DNA of 61,809 nucleotides, filler included, from Vannella sp. (lineage: Eukaryota): assembly GCA_023345925.1 (NCBI GenBank). It is 7 parts of 7 records of this genome, joined end to end, with 100 filler letters (N's around TTAATTAATTAA, not from the genome) between each part and the next. Parts side by side here need not be neighbours in the genome. Positions count along the whole stretch, not along the records: positions 34,678 to 42,247 come from JAJQQN010000631.1; 6 more parts are not named here. The stretch is one strand, 5' to 3'. Shown in pieces: positions 13,925 to 41,300 of the stretch. Numbering within the stretch: the stretch's first letter is position 1; every line of letters begins with the position of its first letter. The notes beneath the pieces were generated by a model that did not search any database, was not told the origin of the DNA, and was given only the letters and a program-made list of their open reading frames with translations. The position numbers were made by a program, and so were the translations under genes.

Positions 13925-16264
13925 TTAGTGCGCCAAGAGAAGCTGGCGAGTAGCATCAAAGCCAATGATGAGCTTGCTGGACTCATCCTTCACAACGCAA
14001 TTGGATTGGAAGACGATTCGCCCTTCTTGCCAGCCGTTGAAGGTTCGCAAGTCGTTGATGACTTGCTGGGAGCCAAAGTAAGGGTGGGATATGACTTGGT
14101 TGTCGTGGAAATCGTGTCCTAAAGTGACGCACTCAAAGCTGTTGATGAGCATGGAGTGCTCTTGGTCCAGAACAAAGCTGAAGACTGCTTGGCACTTTCG
14201 AATGGAAGGCTCAGCAAGGTCTAAGGGGAAGGTCCAGACTCCATTGACACGGATGGGGTGGTAGGGAGTGATTTCAAGCTCTCCCAGTTTCACCAAGTCA
14301 GTCTGGTTGTTCTCGCAAAGGGTCTCGATAACGCATCGCACTGTCGCTTGACGACCAGATCCACTGCGAATGATGTCTCCTTGTTGGATGGCATCGCATC
14401 GCTTCAGGCTGCCATCTGACATGAGGACAAGGGACTGGCCACTGAAGCAAGGATTACTGGAGCAGTGGTATGCATTCATCGAGGAAGGTGCAGAGTAAGA
14501 ACTGGACGAGCCATACGAACTGATGCTGCGTGAAGGCTTTGGTGGTGGCAAGGAAATAAAGATCTCGTCGGTCAAGTCCCGGACCTCATTAAAGAGATGG
14601 CCCCCGTAAAACTGCACGCCAGGGTCCTTGAAGTTATTGCACTGCTGCAAAAGGTGCGCCCTGGCCAGGGAAGGGAGATAATGCCTCCCCCACTTGCTAA
14701 AGTAATCACATTTTGATGTTGCCACTGAAACCTGTCCTTCAGCGTCCTTCAATAACCCCTCTACAAAAGGATCAGAAGCGAATGGACTTGTGCGCGTTGT
14801 TTGAATCCACTTCTTGACAGCCTCATGGATGCTGTCCAGTTCTGACTTGCTGGTAGCAGTGGAGGCGATGCACTCCTGAATCAGATGGACTAAACCCTGA
14901 CGCATAAAGGAGCTTTCTACTGCAAGCGTCCGCTCTTGGATGTCTGCAAGACACAGTTCAGCAGTCAGGCGGTCCGGTTTTTGACCTGGGCTGTATCCAA
15001 GAATAGTGCGATACTCAGCGGTGACGGTGAGCAAAGGTTGCGCTGTGGATTCCTTTCCAGAAGTGGCATTCTTGGGCTTGAGTTCGAAGACAATGTCACG
15101 AGACTGTCCAAAATGGAGAGTCCCAAGAGAGGCAGTCATTCCCCACGACGTAGCAGTCACTGACGGGTGACTTTTGTAACCCACAGCTTCAATTGTGAAG
15201 TCAGATGAAGGCTCAAGAGATAGTGTGACATTCTTGGCCTGGACTGAAAGCAGATTGGAAAGAGCATTCACAAACGCAGTCCCAACAAAGGCGCTGTCGG
15301 GAATGAAGGAATACATTCCGTCACCAACTTGTGCAATCTGCTCCAAAAGCTGGCTTTCCATGTAATAGCCAAAGCCAAACGTGTTGATGGTGCAGCTTAA
15401 TCCGTGCTGATCAAGGTAGCGACGGAGCATGGGAATGTGGCCACGAGGTGGCTCAATGTTAGGCATCCCGTCCGTCAAGATAAAGACCGATTGAAGGCGA
15501 TTGGGCAGCTGGTCTTCTCGAAGAGTGTTCATTCCTTTCTCAAGCCCACCCCAGAGGTTCGTTGAGTCTTCCGTCTGAAGCGCCTTCAGCACCAAGTCAG
15601 CAGCAGCTTTCCCTTCAGGGTTCATGTGAACGAGAGAGAGGACTGTTACAGCCTCAGTACTGTACTTGACAAGAGAGAGTCTGTCGCTTGGCTCTAAAGA
15701 GCTGATGATCGTGGCTACCGCGTGCTTGACCACATCCAAGTACGACAATCCGTGAGATTCGCTCAATCCAGAGGCGTTTTGGAAGGTGGCTTCCGATTCC
15801 ATTGACCCAGAGACGTCAATGACGCAGCAGATGTCAACAGGTGTGCGTTTCCCTTCCATATCAGGCTTCAACGAAGCCAACACGTGAAACCCACCTCCAA
15901 CACTTGGGCTGGAAGACAACTGGAGCTCTATGCCAGAGGGCACGGGCGGGATTAGGATCGGGAGGTTCACGGACGATGCACTGGGTAAGGCTATCGCTTC
16001 AGTAGAGGCTTCAGCGATGATGGCGCCTCCGTTAGGGAGAATCTCTGCGATAAGATCCTTCAGGGCTCGGTTGGGAGCGAGAGAGCTCAAGGACAGGGGA
16101 GTTCTTGTTATGGGGGACGTTGTATTCTTCTTCAACCACGTCTCAATCGCAGATCGCTCGTAAGTGTTCCCTTCCGGATCCACAACAGGGTCTGTCATCA
16201 CCTCGTGGGTCAGCGGGCAGTAGAAGCTTTCAGGGACCGTCTCAGGAGCTGTGTTAGTCACCAT
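13925..16264 (-). CDS. U-box-VWA-Vwaint-Hint (Vint family) protein
   Basis: U-box FYCPLTHEVMTDPV...TYERSAI...SPITR; VWA MIDAS DVSGSM and LTDG; NNFKDPGVQ Vwaint; Hint N-terminus CFSGQSLV, ITPYHP (TxxH), CVTLGH and HPYFGS. Confidence 0.9.
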   Translation of the reverse strand: MVTNTAPETVPESFYCPLTHEVMTDPVVDPEGNTYERSAIETWLKKNTTSPITRTPLSLSSLAPNRALKDLIAEILPNGGAIIAEASTEAIALPSASSVNLPILIPPVPSGIELQLSSSPSVGGGFHVLASLKPDMEGKRTPVDICCVIDVSGSMESEATFQNASGLSESHGLSYLDVVKHAVATIISSLEPSDRLSLVKYSTEAVTVLSLVHMNPEGKAAADLVLKALQTEDSTNLWGGLEKGMNTLREDQLPNRLQSVFILTDGMPNIEPPRGHIPMLRRYLDQHGLSCTINTFGFGYYMESQLLEQIAQVGDGMYSFIPDSAFVGTAFVNALSNLLSVQAKNVTLSLEPSSDFTIEAVGYKSHPSVTATSWGMTASLGTLHFGQSRDIVFELKPKNATSGKESTAQPLLTVTAEYRTILGYSPGQKPDRLTAELCLADIQERTLAVESSFMRQGLVHLIQECIASTATSKSELDSIHEAVKKWIQTTRTSPFASDPFVEGLLKDAEGQVSVATSKCDYFSKWGRHYLPSLARAHLLQQCNNFKDPGVQFYGGHLFNEVRDLTDEIFISLPPPKPSRSISSYGSSSSYSAPSSMNAYHCSSNPCFSGQSLVLMSDGSLKRCDAIQQGDIIRSGSGRQATVRCVIETLCENNQTDLVKLGELEITPYHPIRVNGVWTFPLDLAEPSIRKCQAVFSFVLDQEHSMLINSFECVTLGHDFHDNQVISHPYFGSQQVINDLRTFNGWQEGRIVFQSNCVVKDESSKLIIGFDATRQLLLAH

Positions 16265-16427
16265 AAGAGCTAATTATCGAATGGATTCCCACAGCAAGCA
16301 GACCTCCGCCATTCTCCAAGTCTTCTTAGAGGAAACCTCTCGTTGCTGAAACAGAATAAACCCAGAATGAAAAGTTCCACAAACCTACTTTTCCAGGAAT
16401 TTTTGGAGTAAAGTTTGTTCAGTCGGG

Positions 16428-17970
16428 ATGGGGAACGGTGCAAGTCAAGTCCTTCAGGAGTGCAAGAAGGCGGGAGGCACTCGATTGGGTGTTAAATAAC
16501 TGTTTGTTGAAGGAGATTCCTTCCAAAGCTTTGGTAGGAATGGACCTTGAGCTCCTCAACGTGGAGGGGAACAAGTTGGCGGAGCTTCCCGAGGCCATTT
16601 GTGCGCTCTCTTCGTTGATAGAGCTCAACTGCTCTTCTAACCGGATCAGAACTCTTCCGCAAAATCTGGAACAGTTGAAGACACTCCAGCAGCTCCTCCT
16701 CCATCACAACAAGCTCGAACAGCTACCAGAAGGAGTCGGCAACCTCGCCCAGTTGCAGCTGCTGCACGTGGCAGACAACCGCTTGGTCTCTTTACATTCT
16801 AGCATTGGGAGACTAAGCTCACTAACGGCTCTCTTCTTGGAGGGGAACAGCCTACAGGCGATCCCACCAGAGATCGGCGAGCTTGGCTCTCTCACTTCGC
16901 TGAACATCGCTTCCAACGCCATTTCACTCCTACCACCTGATATTGGGCGTTTGACCAACCTTGCTTGCCTTGTCGCCTTCAGAAACGGGTTGTCCTCGCT
17001 CCCATCCGAAATTGGCCAAATGAGTTCCCTGGCCCTCCTGGATGTGTCAAACAACTGCTTGGAGGTTTTACCAGCAGATCTAGGACGGTGCATATGGCTT
17101 AGAGAACTTAACGTGTCAGAGAACGCTTTGGTGTCCCTCCCAAGCGAACTTGGTTTTTGTGAGCGTTTGGAGATCCTCAAACTCTCTCATAATCAACTGG
17201 AGGAGCTACCTGAATCATTGATAGGGATATTGAGCCTAAAAGAGTTGCACATCGCGTTCAACCAACTCACAAAACGGCCAGAATCCCAGACTATAGACCA
17301 GTTGGCACTCTTCGTGTGTGATGGCAATCCCTTCATTCAAGAGGAGTTAGAGTACTCTCTATGGGCTGCTCTGTCCATGAAGAACTCTTTCACAAAGTAT
17401 TCGCGGAAAAGGAAGTCCCAATGTCGATTGGTGTTCGACCACTCGACAATGCGCTTCATTTGTTTTTGCAAAGAAGTCAACCTGGGACCTGAGGAACATG
17501 AGTTCATGCTTGTTCGAGAGCTTTCTGAGGTCTTGGTTGGTCGCTGCACGTCGCGTTTGCGGCGCCACGGAAAAAGTGAGAAATGTTGCTTCTCGCTTGT
17601 GTCTGCTTCTGTCAGTTTCGAACTGGAAGCGGATTCTGAGAGTGAGTGCGCAATGTGGGTTGCTCTCTTCCAGCAAACAATTGCTTTCTATCGAAAGTAT
17701 CCCACGCCTCTTCCAATGAAACAACCCAGTGAGGGGTCCATGGAGCCAGATTCGATGCACGATATCCAAGCCACCAAAAACGAGCAAGGGGAGCTAACAA
17801 GCCAAGTTCCCTTGCACCAGAATCAATATCAGTACCGGTCTTACTACTCGAACAACCGTAGTTTGCCCAAGGGTTGCATTTGCAGGGTTTTCGTGTTGAT
17901 TTGGTGGGCGATGATCGATTCATGGACGAGGAACTACCAAGCCTACTATCCAAAGCGCCACCTCGATTAA
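16428..17970 (+). CDS. Leucine-rich repeat protein with C-terminal PH-like domain; apparent +1 frameshift near the N-terminus
   Basis: About 12 LxxLxLxxNxL repeats; FTKYSRK...FSLVS...FELEADSESECAMWV PH-like region; MGNGAS start is out of frame with the main ORF. Confidence 0.8.
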
Positions 17971-19622: not shown

Positions 19623-21718
19623 ATGACTCCCCTCCACCGTGCTTGCGTGCGGGGAGATTTGGAGGCGGTTGGGTTGGAGTTGGAGCGAGATTCGGGGCAG
19701 TTGGTTGTGCTGGTGGGTTCAATCAGGGAGTTAGTGATGGTACTAAGAGTCTGCATGGCGTAGAGCGAGGAGACGACAAGGTTTGAGGATGCTGAGGAGG
19801 CGGAAGTGGCCAAAAGTTCTCCGTTACATGCTGCGTGTCGATTGGGTCACTTCGAGGTGGTTAAGAAGTTACTTTCTCATCCTGGTGTTGACGTGAACCT
19901 ACTTGTGAGGCCATTGCATGGCTGTTTCCTCTCACTAACCCGTCGGTAGTGCGAGTTTCGGGTGTGACGCCTTCTACTCTTGGTTCTAGTTGATCTACTC
20001 ACAGAAAACCAGAAGGGGAATGCTCTACATACAGCACTGATCCAAAAGCACGAAAGAATCGCCCTGCTCCTTATTGACGACGGGCGCGTTTCTCTCCTCC
20101 AAGAGGTTTGGTGCAGCTGCGCTTGACTTTTACTCAAACGAAGGATGCCAGGGAGATAACAAAGAACTTCCAATCCTTTTGGCTGCAGATGGGGGCTTCC
20201 TCAAAGTTATTGAGGTTCTTTTGGAGAAAGCCGGAATTGACCAGATTCTCCAGCAAGTGAGTTCCTTTCAAAGGTTCCAGGAACATACTCCTGGCACGCA
20301 TAACTAACACATTTTCGGAAGGATGCCAATAAGGTATTCAGGAAGAGTCTTCTGATGGCAGTTGTTTTACTAAGTCAATAGGTTTCCCCGTTGGAGGCTG
20401 CGCTTGATCAAGAACACCACGATGTGGCCCGGCTTTTGATGAAGCATGGAGGAGACGATTTGCTTGCACTACGGGTTCGTACTATCAAACGGTCTGGATG
20501 GACTGAGTCTCACCGACCTGGGCATGGACCAGAATGATTATGGGGTCAGTAACTATTTCCAGTGAGACAGGCTGAGCTCAGCGGATTCCTTAGGATACAG
20601 CATTGATGTTTGCATGCGCCTTGCAATCGGAGGAAGCTGTGAGATTGGTTCTAGAGTTTACCAAACCTTCTCATTTGACTGAAGCTGTGAGATCAATCCT
20701 TTGATTGTTCGAAAGCAGATTCTAATCGGGAGTAGAATGATATGGGAGTTGGTGATTCTCTCCTCTGAAGGTTAAATGGGAAACTGACTCAAGGAAAGGA
20801 AAATCCGGTTCATTTGGCTGCTTCTTGGGCCTCTTCTGAACTTATGAAAGATCTTTTGAGCTCAGGAGTAGCAGAGGCACTCGAGATGAAGGTAACATTG
20901 AGACGACGGGTGGCGTTTATTGATATTGGTGTGGTAGAACCATGCGGGTAATATTCCATTATTCAACGCTGTACAGAACGAGGACCCTCAGTGTGTTAAG
21001 GCTATGCTCGAAAAAGATCCTGAGCACATCCACTGGGAATGTGTGATGGGAGTACGCGGGTAGCATTGAAAATTCCACTCTTGACTCACTTCTATGAGTA
21101 GAGAACTCCATTAACTCATGCTATGGATGCTGGTACCCCCTCTGTGATCCAAGCAATGCTTGAAATGACAAAAGAACCGGAAGATATCCATCGTTTCTTC
21201 TTCATTGCCTGTGAAACCAGTTTGGCTCTAGTAGAAATGATGGACCGCGCCTTTGGAAGCGTTCTCAATTACTCCAATCAGGTACCTTTTGCTACCTTAT
21301 GGTTTTGCGCCCTTCTCTAAGAATCAGCAAAGACAGAGTACAAAGAAACGGTTCTTCATTATGCCTGCCGTAGCAATGACCCATCCATTGTCAAGTTTCT
21401 TCTCGAGAAAACTGGAAAGGATCTCATTGTCATCCAAGTGAGTTCATCTCGTCTCTTAAGAAGCAAAACCACTCTAACGTTATGGCATTAAGGATGAAGA
21501 CGGGGTGAGTTAGCTCTGAAGTAGGGTTTCATTTTGTTACTTAATTGCAACAGCGGACTGCCCTAGATGAAGCTGAAGGTAACGAACAGATAATCCTCCT
21601 TCTGAAGAGCAAATTAGAAACACCTGCGGAGACTACCGGCAAAAGCAGTGGACAATCTACCCGAGGGCAAGAGGCCAAGGAGATTCCGAACCCACCCAAA
21701 AAGCCGAAGCCAAACTGA
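19623..21718 (+). CDS. Multi-exon ankyrin-repeat protein (about 9-10 repeats) with five 12-nt microexons
   Basis: Hand-spliced phase-0 exons: MTPLHRAC, SPLHAAC, GNALHTAL, LPILLAA, SPLEAAL, TALMFAC, NPVHLAA, IPLFNAV, TPLTHAM, TVLHYAC, TALDEA; all GT-AG. Confidence 0.85.
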
Positions 21719-22269: not shown

Positions 22270-23979
22270 ATGGATGAACAATTGAATTTCGCAGAATTCC
22301 TTGAACACAATTCGGGCCATCGGATTGGACAGAAAGTGTCAATGTCAGTCGCCTCTGGCCTGCCAGTTGCCTTTCGCATGCCAAGACAAGCAGCTCCTCG
22401 CCGAGGATTTCGGAGGGAGTCTGCGTTTCTTCAAAGTGCGCCCTCGCAGAGGTTCTCTCCATACGAGCAATGGGACCCCCTAGCCTTCTCTACCTCGCCT
22501 TCGACGACTTTCAAAAGAGAGCCTGTCATTGACCCTCCTCCTGTAGAGCGGTCGTCATTTCAGCAGGTCTTGCATGTTGTGAGATGTGTCTTTAAACTGC
22601 CCATGTATCTACTGGGGACAATGCAGGAGACTGCGAGCCTCTTGAAGAAGATGAGGGCGAAGCAGCCCGTTCTGGTCTTGCCCTTGCTGTTCATTGATGC
22701 ATCACTACGTGGGGTGGGACAGATCTTCTTCCAGAACAGCCCAATGACTGGTCTGATCATCATCGTGGCCATGTTTGTCGGTGGATGGTGGGAAGGCGTC
22801 TGCTCCCTCTTGGGTCTGGTTTGCTCAACCTTCACCGCAGTCCTCTTTGGCATGAATAGTGCCACGGTAGAGAACGGACTCTACGGCTACAACGGCTTCT
22901 TATGCGGGTCCGCCATGGCTCTTTTTCTTGAAGGACCTTGGGTTGGTTCGACTGTAGTGGCTATCGTATTCTCCTCCATCTTCAGCTCTGTATGTCCTAT
23001 CTCTCACTATCAATGCTCCACTGACACCTGAAAGCTGATTAACTTGGCATTGGGAAATATGCTGATTCCCACTTTCAAACTTCCTCCGTTCACGTTCGCC
23101 TTTAACGTGATTATGTACTTTACTCTGTTTGCAGTATTCAAGTTCGAGTACTTTCACTTTGCCCAGCCCTTCGGTTCTGCTGCTCTGCCAGTGGAAAGTG
23201 AAGCTGACTTTGAGATTTCAGCCTCGATTGTCTTCATTGGCTGGCTTAAAGGAGTGAGCCAGATCTATATCTTAGAGAACTGGATATCGTAAGCATAGTG
23301 AGCTATTTAGGTGTGCAGCAGCTCATCCAAGGGAAGGGGAATTATCATTCTCATAGGTATATCACTTTGTTCTCCCATCAGTGCCTTCTTTACTGGTCTT
23401 GGAAGTGCGGTTGGAATGCTAGTGGCGTTTCTCTTGGGTGCACCGACAAGCGAAATAGCTGCTGGGCTGTACGGCTATGACGCTGCGTTATCTTGCTGTG
23501 CCGTTGGCGGAGTGTTTTTTGTGTTAGTTTAAGGCTCTCCTGCTTCCGTCCCTCTCGTTCTGCTTCATCACTCATACTGTGGTTCTAGGTTGACGCTACG
23601 AGTAGCTTTCCTTTCAGTCTTTGCGGCGGTTCTGACGACGGTAACTCATGGAGCAATGGCAGCGTTCTTTGGAACCTGGGGCTTGCCACCCCTGACTGTG
23701 GCATTCAGTGTAGTGGCATCTCTCTTTGTTCTTCTCCAGGGAAGTGTGGCGGGGGCTACTGCGGTCCAAATCACGCGCATTACCACACCCGAAGCTCACA
23801 TCAGGCGCTATTGGCGGTCTCTCCCTCATGCCAGCAACCGCAAGGGCCCTCGATTCTTCTATTGGATACGAGCATTCGTTATCTCTTCTCATATGAAGAA
23901 AGAGGAGGAGATCCCGCCCGTTCCAGTCCCAGACAAGCATTTGGAGCCGCTCCCTTCGAGTGTGTTTGACCTCCCTTGA
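22270..23979 (+). CDS. Urea transporter (UT/SLC14 family), spliced
   Basis: LRGVGQIFFQNSPMTG, GLYGYNG, LPPFTFAF, KGVSQIY, GLYGYDA, LPPLTVAF repeated halves. Confidence 0.9.
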
Positions 23980-28961: not shown

Positions 28962-29170
28962 CAGCCAGAGAGAAGAATGAAACTGCCCAAAGGCTGTCCT
29001 CACCCATTTCCTGGAACTTCTCATTCGCCCCTTTGCATAATGAAGCTGCCAACCAACTGTGTTTTGGAATGTGGCTAAATTACTGTTTTCAAAGGCTCAT
29101 TTGCAAATGGCTCGGTTTTGGGAGGGGGAAAGTCAACGCTTTTCTGGCTCCATTGTTTGTTTGATTGGTG

Positions 29171-29800
29171 ATGAGGAGTGTTGTCCTTTTGGCTATCTTT
29201 GTTGCTGTTGTGGTGGCGGATGGGTGTCCACCGGTGGGTACCCAGGCTGATTTCAATGTGACCTCGTTTGTGGGGAAGCCTTGGTTTGCGCAGATGGCTC
29301 AGCCTGTGGTGTACTTGACGCCGAATGATCTGTACTGTGTGAGAGCGTCGTATAACTTGACCTCTCCCACGACTGTGGCGGTCAACAACTACGCCAATGT
29401 GGGCCAAATCAACGGACCTGTGAAGGGAGGAGACCTTTGTGCTGTCATTAAGGATCCCTCAGACCCCGCTAAGCTCTCTGTTGGTCCCTGCGAGCTTCCA
29501 AGCAACTTCTACGGCCCCTACTGGGTGGTATTTGCCGGTCCCTCTCCCTCCAACTACGAATACGCCATCATAAGCGGCGGCCAACCTTCCGTTAACACAG
29601 GCAAAGGATGCCGCCCTGGTTATGGTGTGAACGCGTCAGGCATCTTCCTCTTCTCCCGCACCCAAGTCGCTCCCACCCAACAAGTGAACATGCTTGTCGC
29701 CCAATGCGCCCAGCTTGGCTTTGATACGTCCATCCTCCGTCCCATTGAACAGCGTGGATGTGTTTACCCTTCTCTAATACACTTCCCCTCGCCCGCGTGA
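29171..29800 (+). CDS. Secreted lipocalin (ApoD-like), paralog 1
   Basis: Signal peptide; DFNVTSFVGKPWF, YWVV, YEYAIISGG, LFSR lipocalin motifs. Confidence 0.85.
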   Translation: MRSVVLLAIFVAVVVADGCPPVGTQADFNVTSFVGKPWFAQMAQPVVYLTPNDLYCVRASYNLTSPTTVAVNNYANVGQINGPVKGGDLCAVIKDPSDPAKLSVGPCELPSNFYGPYWVVFAGPSPSNYEYAIISGGQPSVNTGKGCRPGYGVNASGIFLFSRTQVAPTQQVNMLVAQCAQLGFDTSILRPIEQRGCVYPSLIHFPSPA

Positions 29801-29863
29801 TGGAAGCTCCGAACTTCGGGCGTTACGTTGGTCAGAAGACTTCCTTCAGTCGTACAACTCCGC

Positions 29864-30481
29864 ATGAACGGTAAGTGCTTGTACGTGGCTCTGTTTGTAG
29901 TGCTTGTGGGTGGCTCGTGTCCCGTGGTGAACGTGCAGGATGGCTTCAACGTGACGCAGTACGTGGAAAGGCCTTGGTTCGCTCAGATGCAGATGCCTGT
30001 TACGTACCTTCCCCTGGATGGCTTCTTCTGCGTAGCAGCCAACTACACACCTACAGGACCTAGCTCTATCAACGTGTACAACTACGCGAACAAGGGCGAG
30101 GTGAATGGTCCCGTCACTGGTGCGAAGCTTTGCGCTGTCATTCCTGATCTGTCTGTGCCTGCTAAGCTCTCTGTGGGACCTTGCCAGCTACCTTCGTTCC
30201 TATATGGAGCCTACTGGGTTGTCTTTGTCGGCCCTGATCCCGCCAACTACGAGTACGCGTTGGTCAGCGGAGGACAACCCACCATTGAGACTGGGAAAGG
30301 CTGTACCACTGGTTCTGGCAGGAGTAACTCAGGCCTTTGGATCCTTACGAGGAGTAGCACCGTATCGCCTACACTGATCGATCAGATCCTCTTGCAAGCA
30401 GCCGCTCTTGGCTTTGACACCTCCGTCCTCGTCCCTGTCGTCCAGCAAGGATGCTTGTTCCCTCCTCCCTTCTCGTCCTAG
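29864..30481 (+). CDS. Secreted lipocalin (ApoD-like), paralog 2
   Basis: Tandem paralog: FNVTQYVERPWF, YWVV, YEYALVSGG, LWILTR. Confidence 0.85.
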   Translation: MNGKCLYVALFVVLVGGSCPVVNVQDGFNVTQYVERPWFAQMQMPVTYLPLDGFFCVAANYTPTGPSSINVYNYANKGEVNGPVTGAKLCAVIPDLSVPAKLSVGPCQLPSFLYGAYWVVFVGPDPANYEYALVSGGQPTIETGKGCTTGSGRSNSGLWILTRSSTVSPTLIDQILLQAAALGFDTSVLVPVVQQGCLFPPPFSS

Positions 30482-35968: not shown

Positions 35969-37047
35969 TTACTTGTCAATGGGCTTGTCCCCAAAGAAGG
36001 CGTAGGGCACAGCAAAGTCCTTGTTGCCTAGCCCGTGGGTGCTCATCAGGTTGTACAGCTGAAGGGCCGCAGATCCAAGAGGTACTGGAGCTTTGACCGA
36101 CTGAGCAGCTGTCATGGCCAGGGAGAGATCCTTCGAGATGAGGTCGACGCCAAACCCGCCAACGTACCCTTTGGAACTGGGCACATTCTCCATCACCCCA
36201 GGCACTGGGTTGTAAGAGTCACTGCTCCAGCAGCGTGCTGTGGAGCAGTTGAAGATGCTTGCAAGCAGCTTGGCGTCCATTCCAAGCTGAGTGCCGAGGT
36301 TCATTGCCTCCGAGACTCCGATCATTTGGATCGCCAGGGCGAGGTTGTTGCAGAGCTTGACGACTTGTCCAGATCCGTTGGGTCCACAGTAGATGATCTT
36401 GCTTCCCATGGCTTCAAGAAGGGGCCGTGCCTTCTCCATGGTGGACTCGTCTCCTCCCACCATGAAAGTGAGGGTGCCATTCGCCGCTCCTGTGACTCCT
36501 CCGCTCACAGGGGTGTCGATCATGCTCGCTCCCTTCTCCTTTACGAGAGCAGAGACCTGCTTGGCAACGTGGGGGTCAATGGTACTGGAATCAATGTAGA
36601 CGTCGCCGCTTTGTGCTGCCTGGAGGACTCCATTGGCACCACAATACACATCCTGAACATGTGCAGAGGCAGGAACCATACTGATGATGCGGCGTGCATG
36701 CTCAGCGACCTCCTTTGGAGAAACCGCGATATGTGCGCCTTCGCTCTCCAGCTTCCGGGCGTTCTCAGCAGAAACATCGAAGGCCACGACAGGGAAGCCC
36801 TTCTTCATCAAGTTGCGAGCCATGCTAGAAGTAAGGGGTCAGAATTTGAGCTCAGACATGGTCGCGGAGAGGCCTGTTCTCACCTCAAACCCATGTTGCC
36901 CAGTCCAATGAAGCCCACCGCCTCCTTCTACGCAGATCTCGTAAGCATACATCTGTTTGAGCTCGCCGATAACCCTTGACCTACCGCGCCTGTCGAGAAA
37001 GAACGAACTGCGGAAGCTCCCGCTCGGCATCCAACCGCAGCCAACAT
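35969..37047 (-). CDS. HIBADH: Mitochondrial 3-hydroxyisobutyrate dehydrogenase
   Basis: Presequence MLAAVGCRAG; VGFIGLGNMG, DSSTI, PVSGG, KLCNN, WSSDSYNPVPG. Confidence 0.93.
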
Positions 37048-37121
37048 TCCACCAAATAGTGACTGCTTCATGAAAGTAAGGTTCCTACCCTTTTTACACT
37101 TCGTTCTATCACTTTCGAGTC

Positions 37122-37149
37122 AACCCTAAACCCTAAACCCTAAACCCTA
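37122..37149 (+). repeat. (CCCTAAA)x3-4 telomere-like/telo-box tract in a bidirectional promoter
   Basis: AACCCTAAACCCTAAACCCTAAACCCTA ends 6 nt before the ATG at 37156. Confidence 0.85.
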
Positions 37150-37155
37150 GCCTCA

Positions 37156-38853
37156 ATGTTGGCGTGTATTGCTTTCACTCTCGTCCCTTGGAGGATGCGG
37201 TTTCCCGATTCTGCTCAAATAGAAAAGTTGAACAAAGTGGTGATCGTCCCATTTTTTTCTGGATGGGAGACAGGGGGCTGTCTCCGCTTGACGAGCACCG
37301 CAATGCTGTGCAGGGGTCGCTTTACAGCCCAAAGAACTTCTCAGATGCAGTTCTCTTCTTGGAAAAGTTTCCGAGCTATCTGAACGTTTATGTGAGGAGG
37401 GAGCCATCAGACTCTTCCTCGCTAAAGGGCCTCGCGTGTTTAACTCCACCATCAAGTGATTAAGAAACTGACATGCATGTAATTAGGAAGTATGCATGGG
37501 ATTGTCGCCCTAAACCTCGGTTCGTGCCATGGTAGAGTGTTAATCGATTGGGGATGTCTTTAGGGGGTCGGTTGCTCATTGATTCCTCCTCCTCTCTCAC
37601 CATTCTGTGCAGGAGGTGAGTGATCTATCGTTCGAGAACAGGCGAGATAACCAGTACCCCACTCGAAGGAAGTAAGTTACATCCTCTATGAACAAGCAAG
37701 ATGGTCAGTGTCTGACCAGAACGTATTGTAAAGGAGGTAAGATTCGGAACTATCCAACTCATCTTCCATCTTCTCAATGAGTTTCAGAACGTAAGTTTGA
37801 GAGAAGTTGAGCTCTTGCTGAGAGTATCAGGGGGTGAGTGCGAGCAGCCAACAACTCTGTGCTTGCCTCACTCGATTCTATTGTAGTGGGTGAGTGAGCC
37901 ATGGCATTTGGTATTCGGCGGCAGAACAAACCATTGTGCCAGACATTCCTGGGCATCGCTTGTGGACAGGGAATTACAGAGAACGTGGTTCGTTTGCTCT
38001 CTTATCGTGGCATTGATGTCCAAAAGGGAGTGAGACAGGACCAAACTTTTTGTGACATGTTTACTGATGCAATCGGATAGAGAGTAAGAAATCAAGCCTT
38101 TGACTTCCGCAATACTGAGGCCATGTCGTAGGAAGTAAGCTTGATTCTGGATGACTGTAACTCACCGATTTATAGAGAGTGAGTGGTTACCCGACCAGAG
38201 AATTGCCCTCTCGCTGATTTCCTCCATAGAGAGTAAGTTATGGCCGTTTATGATCCCTTCTCACAAAAATAGGAAGTAAGTGGTCGACCTTACCTAACAA
38301 TCTCCAGGAAGTTCTTAATTCTTGATATATTGTAGTATGTGAGTTGCTGCACCATCCCGAAACTGAAGTGTATCCTCTGACATGGACATTCTTAAGGGGG
38401 TAAATAAGAAAGAAAGCAAGCTCTTCAAAGTCTGACCTGTGTAGGTGGTAAGGATGTTATTTAGGAGGGACCAGTGAAAGCCTCTGAATGAAATCTCAGT
38501 GTGTAAGTCATATTTCTCTCTTCAAAGCAAATCCTCAAAGGCCCTATAGTTTGTAAGTTTCTCTCTGCTGTAAAGGAAGAGTTGAGTGCTTATGTAAGGT
38601 CAAAGAGCCCTTTGGACTTGGCTATGATCCACAAGAAACACCATCTCATCCCATTGCTTCTTGCCGCTGGATGTCGTTGCATCACTGTAATCCCTCCGTT
38701 ATTCCCATCCGTCACTGACACCTCATGTAGGAAGGCAGACACCTCGAAAAGTTCTCCATTCAGAACGTCCCAAAGCCGATCAAGAAAGTCAGCTTTTTCA
38801 GGAGGGCCATTTCATCTCTGAAGCCGCCAAGAGAAGAACAACAGGAACCCTAA
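37156..38853 (+). CDS. Small ankyrin-repeat protein whose two hairpin loops are encoded by 18 single-codon microexons
   Basis: Exons 37156-37163, 37223-37391, eight 3-nt exons (37487-37889), 37943-38029 (TFLGIACGQG...LLSYRGIDVQKG), ten 3-nt exons (38081-38552), 38606-38686 (SPLDLAM...LLLAAG), 38731-38853; all GT-AG, frame maintained. Confidence 0.85.
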
Positions 38854-40757: not shown

Positions 40758-41280
40758 CCTCAAGTAAACTGGGTATTTCCTCTTCCTCTGACATCGCCTT
40801 CCCATCAAAAAGGACCGTAGTACGTTGCAACAGTCTTTAGACGTGAAAGCTGGGTAAAGTGGGGCAGCTTTGGTGTTTGAAAAGCTTGTTCAAGGAGCCC
40901 ATGCGATACGGGTTTGTGTTAAACAGGGTCCTATTCTGATGTCAACAAGAAATCATAGAGAAGAGAGTAAAAGGCTTTCGTCAGAAGTAGCAAATAGATA
41001 CTGCCATGATGAAGTCCATTTCATGTTCACATCATCGAAAGCCGAGAACTCTCCAAATAATCAAACATACCTCAACTGATCAACCCTGGCGGGACTCAAC
41101 TGATCCGCAATCAGGGATTGGACATATCGGTCAACAGGTCGTGCTGTCTGGGAGGAAGGGGCAAAGAAAAGTAACCCACAGAACCCACCCAAAAATCGCC
41201 CCACAAATGGCCACATCAGCACATTCAAATAAATACTTCCTCACGTCACTTCAGCCGTCTTATCAATGATGAAAAAATGC

Positions 41281-41300
41281 AGGGTTTAGGGTTTAGGGTT
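41281..41300 (+). repeat. TTTAGGG telo-box tract upstream of MTMR14
   Basis: AGGGTTTAGGGTTTAGGGTT about 70 nt upstream of the ATG. Confidence 0.75.

Follow-up and report, generated by a model that had tools for sequence, protein, structure and literature searches.

The window (the whole stretch of DNA analysed, 61,809 nt with filler included) carries an ankyrin-like gene that sits within one unbroken piece of about 7.5 kb. Four predicted exons of ordinary size are interrupted by two arrays of one-codon units (Table 1), and the spliced model that includes all units encodes 157 residues in one open frame, with the codon exons making up 54 of its 471 coding bases. Exon 1 probably represents the first (capping) ankyrin repeat, and no hydrophobic leader was seen in it by eye. 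The exon beginning with S-P-L is followed by a predicted 44-nt intron (after position 38686) that contains a CTGAC branch motif. Only about 190 nt separate the start of the divergent dehydrogenase gene from the ankyrin ATG, which leaves no space for an N-terminal NACHT or other domain, and a Pfam scan of the frame upstream of the ankyrin gene gave no match. The plant-type telomere heptamers in the gap between these two genes are probably a promoter-region element, and a second run of such heptamers lies in an intergenic gap at about 41276-41300. Elsewhere, the window contains one long frame in which Pfam recognises U-box, VWA, Vwaint, and Vint (Hint) domains (13925-16273, minus strand) and, on the plus strand, an LRR-PH protein (16360-17970), a urea transporter (22270-23031), and two lipocalin-like frames (29165-30481). 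Two AG-CT-GTRAG sites 48 nt apart, at 20637 and 20685 on the plus strand, may represent either two successive 2-nt exons or a short repeated sequence.

Table 1. Features predicted at and around the ankyrin-like gene, in window coordinates.
Feature	Coordinates	Strand	Description
3-hydroxyisobutyrate dehydrogenase gene	35969..37071	-	Divergent neighbour, not part of the system
Plant-type telomere heptamer, four copies	37122..37149	+	Gap between the divergent genes
Exon 1, predicted	37263..37391	+	43 codons from the most likely ATG (start unproven), ends L-N-V-Y, phase 0
Array 1, predicted	37487..37889	+	Eight one-codon exons, E G E E E N G W
Array 1 unit starts	37487, 37564, 37613, 37669, 37734, 37788, 37831, 37887	+	
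Array 1 introns			95, 74, 46, 53, 62, 51, 40, and 53 nt before the units; 53 nt after the last
Middle exon, predicted	37943..38029	+	29 codons, two helices of one ankyrin repeat
Array 2, predicted	38081..38552	+	Ten one-codon exons, R E R R E Y G V C F
Array 2 unit starts	38081, 38132, 38176, 38230, 38273, 38336, 38397, 38445, 38500, 38550	+	
Array 2 introns			51, 48, 41, 51, 40, 60, 58, 45, 52, and 47 nt before the units; 53 nt after the last
S-P-L exon, predicted	38606..38686	+	27 codons, begins S-P-L, last ankyrin-like repeat
Last exon, predicted	38731..38853	+	40 codons and stop, basic low-complexity tail

An earlier sequence-only reading of this DNA had listed 18 AG-NNN-GT units, and the coordinates and translations of all of them were recovered. 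Its description of spacers of 40-95 nt was reproduced in the 20 spacers that we measured (median 51.5 nt), as were the presence of a GTRAG donor at 15 of the 18 units and the phase 0 of every unit. The absence of stop codons that it pointed out is a true count but not significant alone, as 2.1 stops are expected among 18 units. All 20 intervening spacers have GT...AG borders, the longer GTRAGT donor is present at 11 of the 18 units, and the unit acceptors are TAG (11), CAG (4), and AAG (3). The weakest donors of array 1 are those of unit 1 (GTATGC) and unit 2 (GTCGGT). Units 37613 and 37734 themselves end in AG, and acceptor choice could also drop them.

Within 37392-38605, AG-NNN-GTRAG occurs at 16 sites, of which 15 are codon units and one is the end of the 87-nt exon, whereas 1000 dinucleotide shuffles gave 0.37 on average and never more than 5. 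The equivalent patterns with 2 or 4 bases between the signals (AG-NN-GTRAG and AG-NNNN-GTRAG) have no site there. The loose AG-NNN-GT pattern was seen 29 times in this region against 7.8 expected, with its ten extra matches at chance level; three additional candidate units inside introns (37536, 37720, and 38308) were rejected as being at chance level with poor donors or spacers. A triple-unit pattern matched 3 times in the window, always in array 2, and never in 100 shuffles, and no runs of codon units besides the two arrays were found in the 61.8 kb. These shuffle tests rule out a chance origin of the arrays. A tandem-repeat or minisatellite origin is also ruled out by the spacers, which are nearly unrelated to each other: among 21 introns, 2 of 210 pairs scored above the 99.9th percentile of shuffled pairs. 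The GT and AG signals are nevertheless intact at all 18 units although the intron interiors are unrelated, and this combination implies ongoing selection. Judged from the DNA, the units are very likely used as exons.

The array introns were compared with those of the gamma-tubulin gene of the window, which has five clear introns of 51-59 nt with CAG, TAG, and AAG acceptors and a sixth with an acceptor that was not reliably fixed. The array spacers resemble these ordinary introns, AAG acceptors being common to both, and the array donors, though strong, do not significantly exceed the six tubulin donors in strength (p 0.14). Parts of both arrays were reproduced in contigs from public DNA runs of four studies, in which cover is shallow and partial, and a single 783-nt contig covers 37405-38187 with 1 difference. 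The variants found in 37392-38605 are six substitutions and one 2-nt deletion, all of them in intron interiors, a confinement (7 of 7 events) that is not significant (p about 0.24). Where the shallow and partial DNA-run cover reaches the arrays, no codon unit is changed, gained, or lost.

The proposal that the units act like in-frame exons in ankyrin hairpin loops agrees with their placement, since both arrays lie between a D-V-N-like repeat end and a T/S-P-L start. A helix-turn-helix-hairpin repeat signature at a spacing of about 33 residues is present on weak-to-moderate evidence from the Atlas, a profile, and an alignment with MYPT1. In the Atlas, ankyrin clusters came first for the middle exon at 0.95, with a recognition value of 2287, just below the 2300 mark, and the best PDB match of this exon was to the ankyrin repeats of MYPT1 (E 0.32). 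On an ankyrin profile, the joined model reached 7.6 bits, a score to which none of 200 shuffles came close (1.4 bits at most); the profile was built from 80 bacterial loci and its reference set is one actinobacterial family. Pfam searches with the single exons of 27-43 residues gave no match, ankyrin (PF00023/PF12796) falling below threshold. Exon 1, a weak query of 43-47 residues, had no relatives in two protein collections, exon 2 had no match among plasmids, and neither three viral records searched for Ank_2 nor a genome scanned with part of a fungal ankyrin gave anything. No SOWAH protein appeared among the homologue, PDB, and Atlas matches of the window exons.

The neighbouring dehydrogenase served as the marker for placing the host. 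Its best named relatives are those of Balamuthia (59%) and dictyostelids (54-56%), and no named fungus occurs in the best 120 of 4,255 matches. In a quick tree built from 74 of these 120 matches, with no named fungi included, the dehydrogenase falls in a clade of seven environmental sequences with support 100 on a poorly supported backbone. In the PDB search, the ACC of the window scored 682 bits with human ACC versus 617 with yeast ACC; no taxon was fixed by an Atlas query with gamma-tubulin or by PDB searches with ACC and gamma-tubulin. The dehydrogenase comparisons point to a host that is likely an amoebozoan and very probably not a truffle relative.

The length of the two hairpin loops bears on how many units are used. 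Reference loops, measured from D-V-N to the next T-P-L, have 5-11 residues (n=119; 7 residues in 35, 9 in 58, and 10 in 19). With no units included, both loops of the ankyrin-like protein would have 2 residues, against 5 in the shortest reference loop, and with all units included they would have 10 (array 1) and 12 (array 2); the former is within the reference range, and the latter exceeds every one of the 119 loops. Retention of the first intron would stop translation within 23 (array 1) or 16 (array 2) codons. As skipping of all units would leave 2-residue loops and intron retention would introduce stops, at least some units are probably included in the mRNA. The repeat pair around array 2 scores 15.5 bits on the profile with the best five codons, 8.6 with all ten, and 9.6 with none, and when all ten are included V, C, and F follow the G where the G-x-[TS]P motif has one residue. 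Array 1, which ends in a regular N-G-W-T hairpin, scores 6.8 bits with all eight codons and at best 7.7 with five, and its profile is flat between five and eight codons. The profile leans towards skipping in array 2 only, and with one bacterial family as the reference the loop-length argument is weak. The repertoire would in any case be smaller than the 2^18 isoforms given by the sequence-only reading because codons repeat, so that at most 100 x 576 = 57,600 distinct loop peptides could be formed.

Similar arrays were searched for with a pattern that required three units in a row, their codons being unlike. At least 144 stretches in metagenome contigs matched, versus 3 in viral contigs (an uninspected background); looser triple-unit patterns in viral contigs (68 and 12 matches) were set aside as nearly all ordinary tandem repeats or chance. 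Among the matches listed, 130 of 139 loci have four or more adjacent spacers of 33-80 nt. Ten loci that on visual inspection looked like simple repeats or chance matches were left out and duplicate units were removed, and in the 124 loci kept among the matches listed, the 1,864 units include 4 stops, where positional base use predicts 141. This shortage implies that such units are selected as codons. The unit codons of loci L084-L222, among the matches listed, favour E, D, R, L, F, G, and Q and avoid C, M, and stops. The window exons match none of the 139 metagenome array loci, and these arrays are therefore parallels and not orthologues of the ones described here.

Flanks are long enough to classify only part of the metagenome loci, and Pfam on 105 of their flanking frames named hosts in only 3. 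A P-loop G-domain family matches 27 array loci (20 contigs) among the matches listed, and wherever the sequence includes the P-loop (18 non-duplicate loci), the array begins 1.1-1.9 kb behind it. These G-domain array loci (16 contigs; L085, L092, L095, L101, L103, L114, L118, L124, L126, L128, L129, L134, L136, L138, L140, L144, L148, and L152) have weak Roc/MMR_HSR1 matches and arrays of up to about 50 one-codon exons, and some of their contigs hold two or three array genes. L092 adjoins a gene with a fungal Goodbye domain, so the hosts of the G-domain arrays are likely fungi. Ankyrin repeats were found beside arrays too. In L106 (866-4470, plus strand), a membrane domain without Pfam match and ankyrin repeats (PF00023, E 1.9e-10) precede about 25 one-codon exons at the C-terminal end, and on the minus strands of two loci with short flanks the one-codon exons stand directly before (L131) or directly after (L174) ankyrin-like exons, a layout close to that of the truffle genes discussed below and to that of the present gene. 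Many of the metagenome arrays combine near-identical introns with unlike codons. In nearest-flank pairs of units with 0-1 differences in 40 flank bases (n=211), the difference per base is 0.47 in the codons and 0.014 in the introns, a roughly 30-fold contrast computed with 18 false or duplicate loci left out and inflated because the search required unlike neighbouring codons; 138 of these pairs are residue-changing and 7 synonymous only. In L095, L098, L107, L112, L127, L132, L151, L159, and others, a second GTGAG lies 16 nt downstream of the donor in the repeated introns and is possibly a frame-shifting alternative donor in every unit. A peak of 19-nt exons in the metagenome loci was rejected as explained by this second GTGAG within repeated introns.

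By analogy with the truffle genes discussed below, the reading that we favour, at about even chances, is that variable skipping of the one-codon exons yields proteins that differ in loop length and sequence. Each intron of about 50 nt would be recognised singly and removed in turn, and a 3-nt exon would be too small to hold the donor and the acceptor complex together. A donor would sometimes be joined to a later acceptor, with one or more codons lost and the frame kept, and isoforms with about 3-7 codons per loop would form a normal hairpin. The ankyrin hairpin is part of the partner-binding face of the domain; that this variation would serve pathogen or prey recognition, as the sequence-only reading suggested, is a guess made by analogy, to which none of our results points.

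The strongest competitor of variable skipping, and one that we hold to be a real possibility if somewhat short of probable, is that the codon exons are constitutive: every intron would be removed, a single protein with loops of 10 and 12 residues would be made, and the array would be an old product of intron-plus-codon duplication kept by protein selection. The strong donors (GTRAG at 15 of the 18 units) fit this well, and so does Drosophila sowah, which besides 6- and 12-nt exons has the 3-nt exons GGC and TAT, the latter two listed as constitutive in a study that in its accessible part also finds stronger donors at constitutive Drosophila microexons (PMC8042270). Among the splice variants of fungi and protists, moreover, cassette exons make up about 3% according to the accessible text of another study (PMC2397502). 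The same reading would account for diverged introns with invariant codons among the DNA runs and for the normal all-included loop of array 1 with its regular hairpin end, but not for array 2, which with all ten codons scores below none or five and outgrows the 119 reference loops. It also leaves unexplained why 20 introns fall in 18 codons, all in phase 0 and exactly at two binding loops. On the other hand, no signalling domain was found in the ankyrin-like gene, nor were paralogues seen (no second array in the window and no paralogous DNA-run contigs at 80%, besides the lack of exon matches in the 139 loci), unlike what an expanded receptor family would present. Four metagenome loci (L100, L108, L126, and L128) argue for constant inclusion too, in that they have the same first five or six codon residues, and so keep the codon order of the array start, despite diverged introns.

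It is very unlikely that the units are not exons at all and that the locus is a relic or pseudogene with its arrays retained or removed as two long introns. The missing relatives of exon 1 and the non-significance of the intron-confined polymorphism would be compatible with this; perfect GT and AG at 18 of 18 units with unrelated interiors would not, nor would the all-skipped loops of 2 residues, too short for a hairpin, and the early stops met on first-intron retention. Variation in the DNA itself, with intron-plus-codon units duplicated, deleted, or recombined between alleles, each allele spliced one way, and strains therefore differing in loop sequence, resembles the metagenome units that differ mainly in the codon between near-identical flanks, but it is most improbable here, where the dissimilar introns offer little homology for unequal exchange and the DNA runs of the four studies show the same codons with no unit gained or lost, at their shallow and partial cover.

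We tentatively propose, while regarding it as rather unlikely, that one-codon exon arrays have evolved repeatedly in eukaryotes as a general means of composing peptide libraries one residue at a time. The ankyrin-like gene would then be the minimal form of this device, a natural DARPin-like amoeba binder for recognising microbes, its two loops being randomised through splicing so that 1.2 kb could give up to 57,600 peptides. Soil fungi would employ the device too, in hundreds of unannotated genes where strongly diversified codons, set between introns that are nearly identical, follow G domains and ankyrins. If skipping is true, a gene of 1.6 kb with two loops would be small enough for a minigene to show how back-to-back 3-nt exons are handled by the spliceosome and whether one cell produces a combinatorial library of binders. 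Even if inclusion is constant, such genes are invisible to gene callers and aligners. The 1,864 units in 124 loci, among the matches listed, indicate a class of fast-evolving eukaryotic genes that is being missed, and a simple pattern now finds them.

In the openly accessible literature searched, such arrays are not described for amoebae or for the likely fungal G-domain family. The concept of alternatively spliced codon-sized exons is already published; we found no printed report of a stand-alone form in a protist, of arrays at both hairpins, or of the metagenome breadth and stop avoidance of the arrays. Among known systems, the micro-exon genes (MEGs) of schistosomes contain runs of symmetric small exons, the skipping of which keeps the frame. 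Their exons are mostly longer than one codon and form most of a secreted protein, whereas the codon exons of the ankyrin-like gene are a small fraction of the coding bases (54/471) and lie inside a folded repeat domain. The fly gene sowah, a member of the sosondowah ankyrin-repeat family, is alike in having 3-nt exons, but as far as the accessible part of the source goes it has two codon exons about 1 kb apart (PMC8042270) and not 8 and 10 in a row separated by introns of 40-95 nt. Brown-algal ROCO and NB-ARC-TPR receptors vary their binding surface by splicing with one exon per repeat, so that, in the text available, whole repeats are the unit there and single loop residues are the unit here (PMC13449251). 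For Coprinopsis, the accessible part of one study counts only 27 three-nt exons in 26 genes (PMC12230235), and arrays are therefore not the fungal norm.

The closest counterpart is provided by the NACHT-ankyrin (nank) genes of Tuber melanosporum, for which alternatively spliced codon-sized exons have been described by Iotti et al. 2012, to judge from the accessible portions of later papers (PMC4986451, PMC13449251, PMC10197012, PMC9815663, PMC3689799). In view of them and of the 3-nt exons of fly sowah (PMC8042270), the remark of the sequence-only reading that it knew of no published case of serial one-codon exons in an ankyrin loop is not supported. As presented in those portions, the truffle genes have many serial 3-bp exons in an ankyrin-repeat gene, as the present gene has 18 units predicted as exons from DNA, and alternative splicing has been proposed to diversify their recognition domain, a function that is putative here and assigned by analogy. 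The differences are that NACHT lies N-terminal to the ankyrins in the truffle genes and is absent from the stand-alone protein of about 157 residues found here; that the present host is probably not a fungus; and that the truffle genes form an expanded family, none being seen here in the window or the DNA runs. By this analogy, the ankyrin-like gene would function in the manner of the truffle nank genes without belonging to them. The truffle exon mechanism was still treated as lineage-specific in 2026 in the accessible text of one of these papers (PMC13449251); if skipping is true, what has been regarded as a truffle oddity would extend to a distant lineage and to a far simpler gene.
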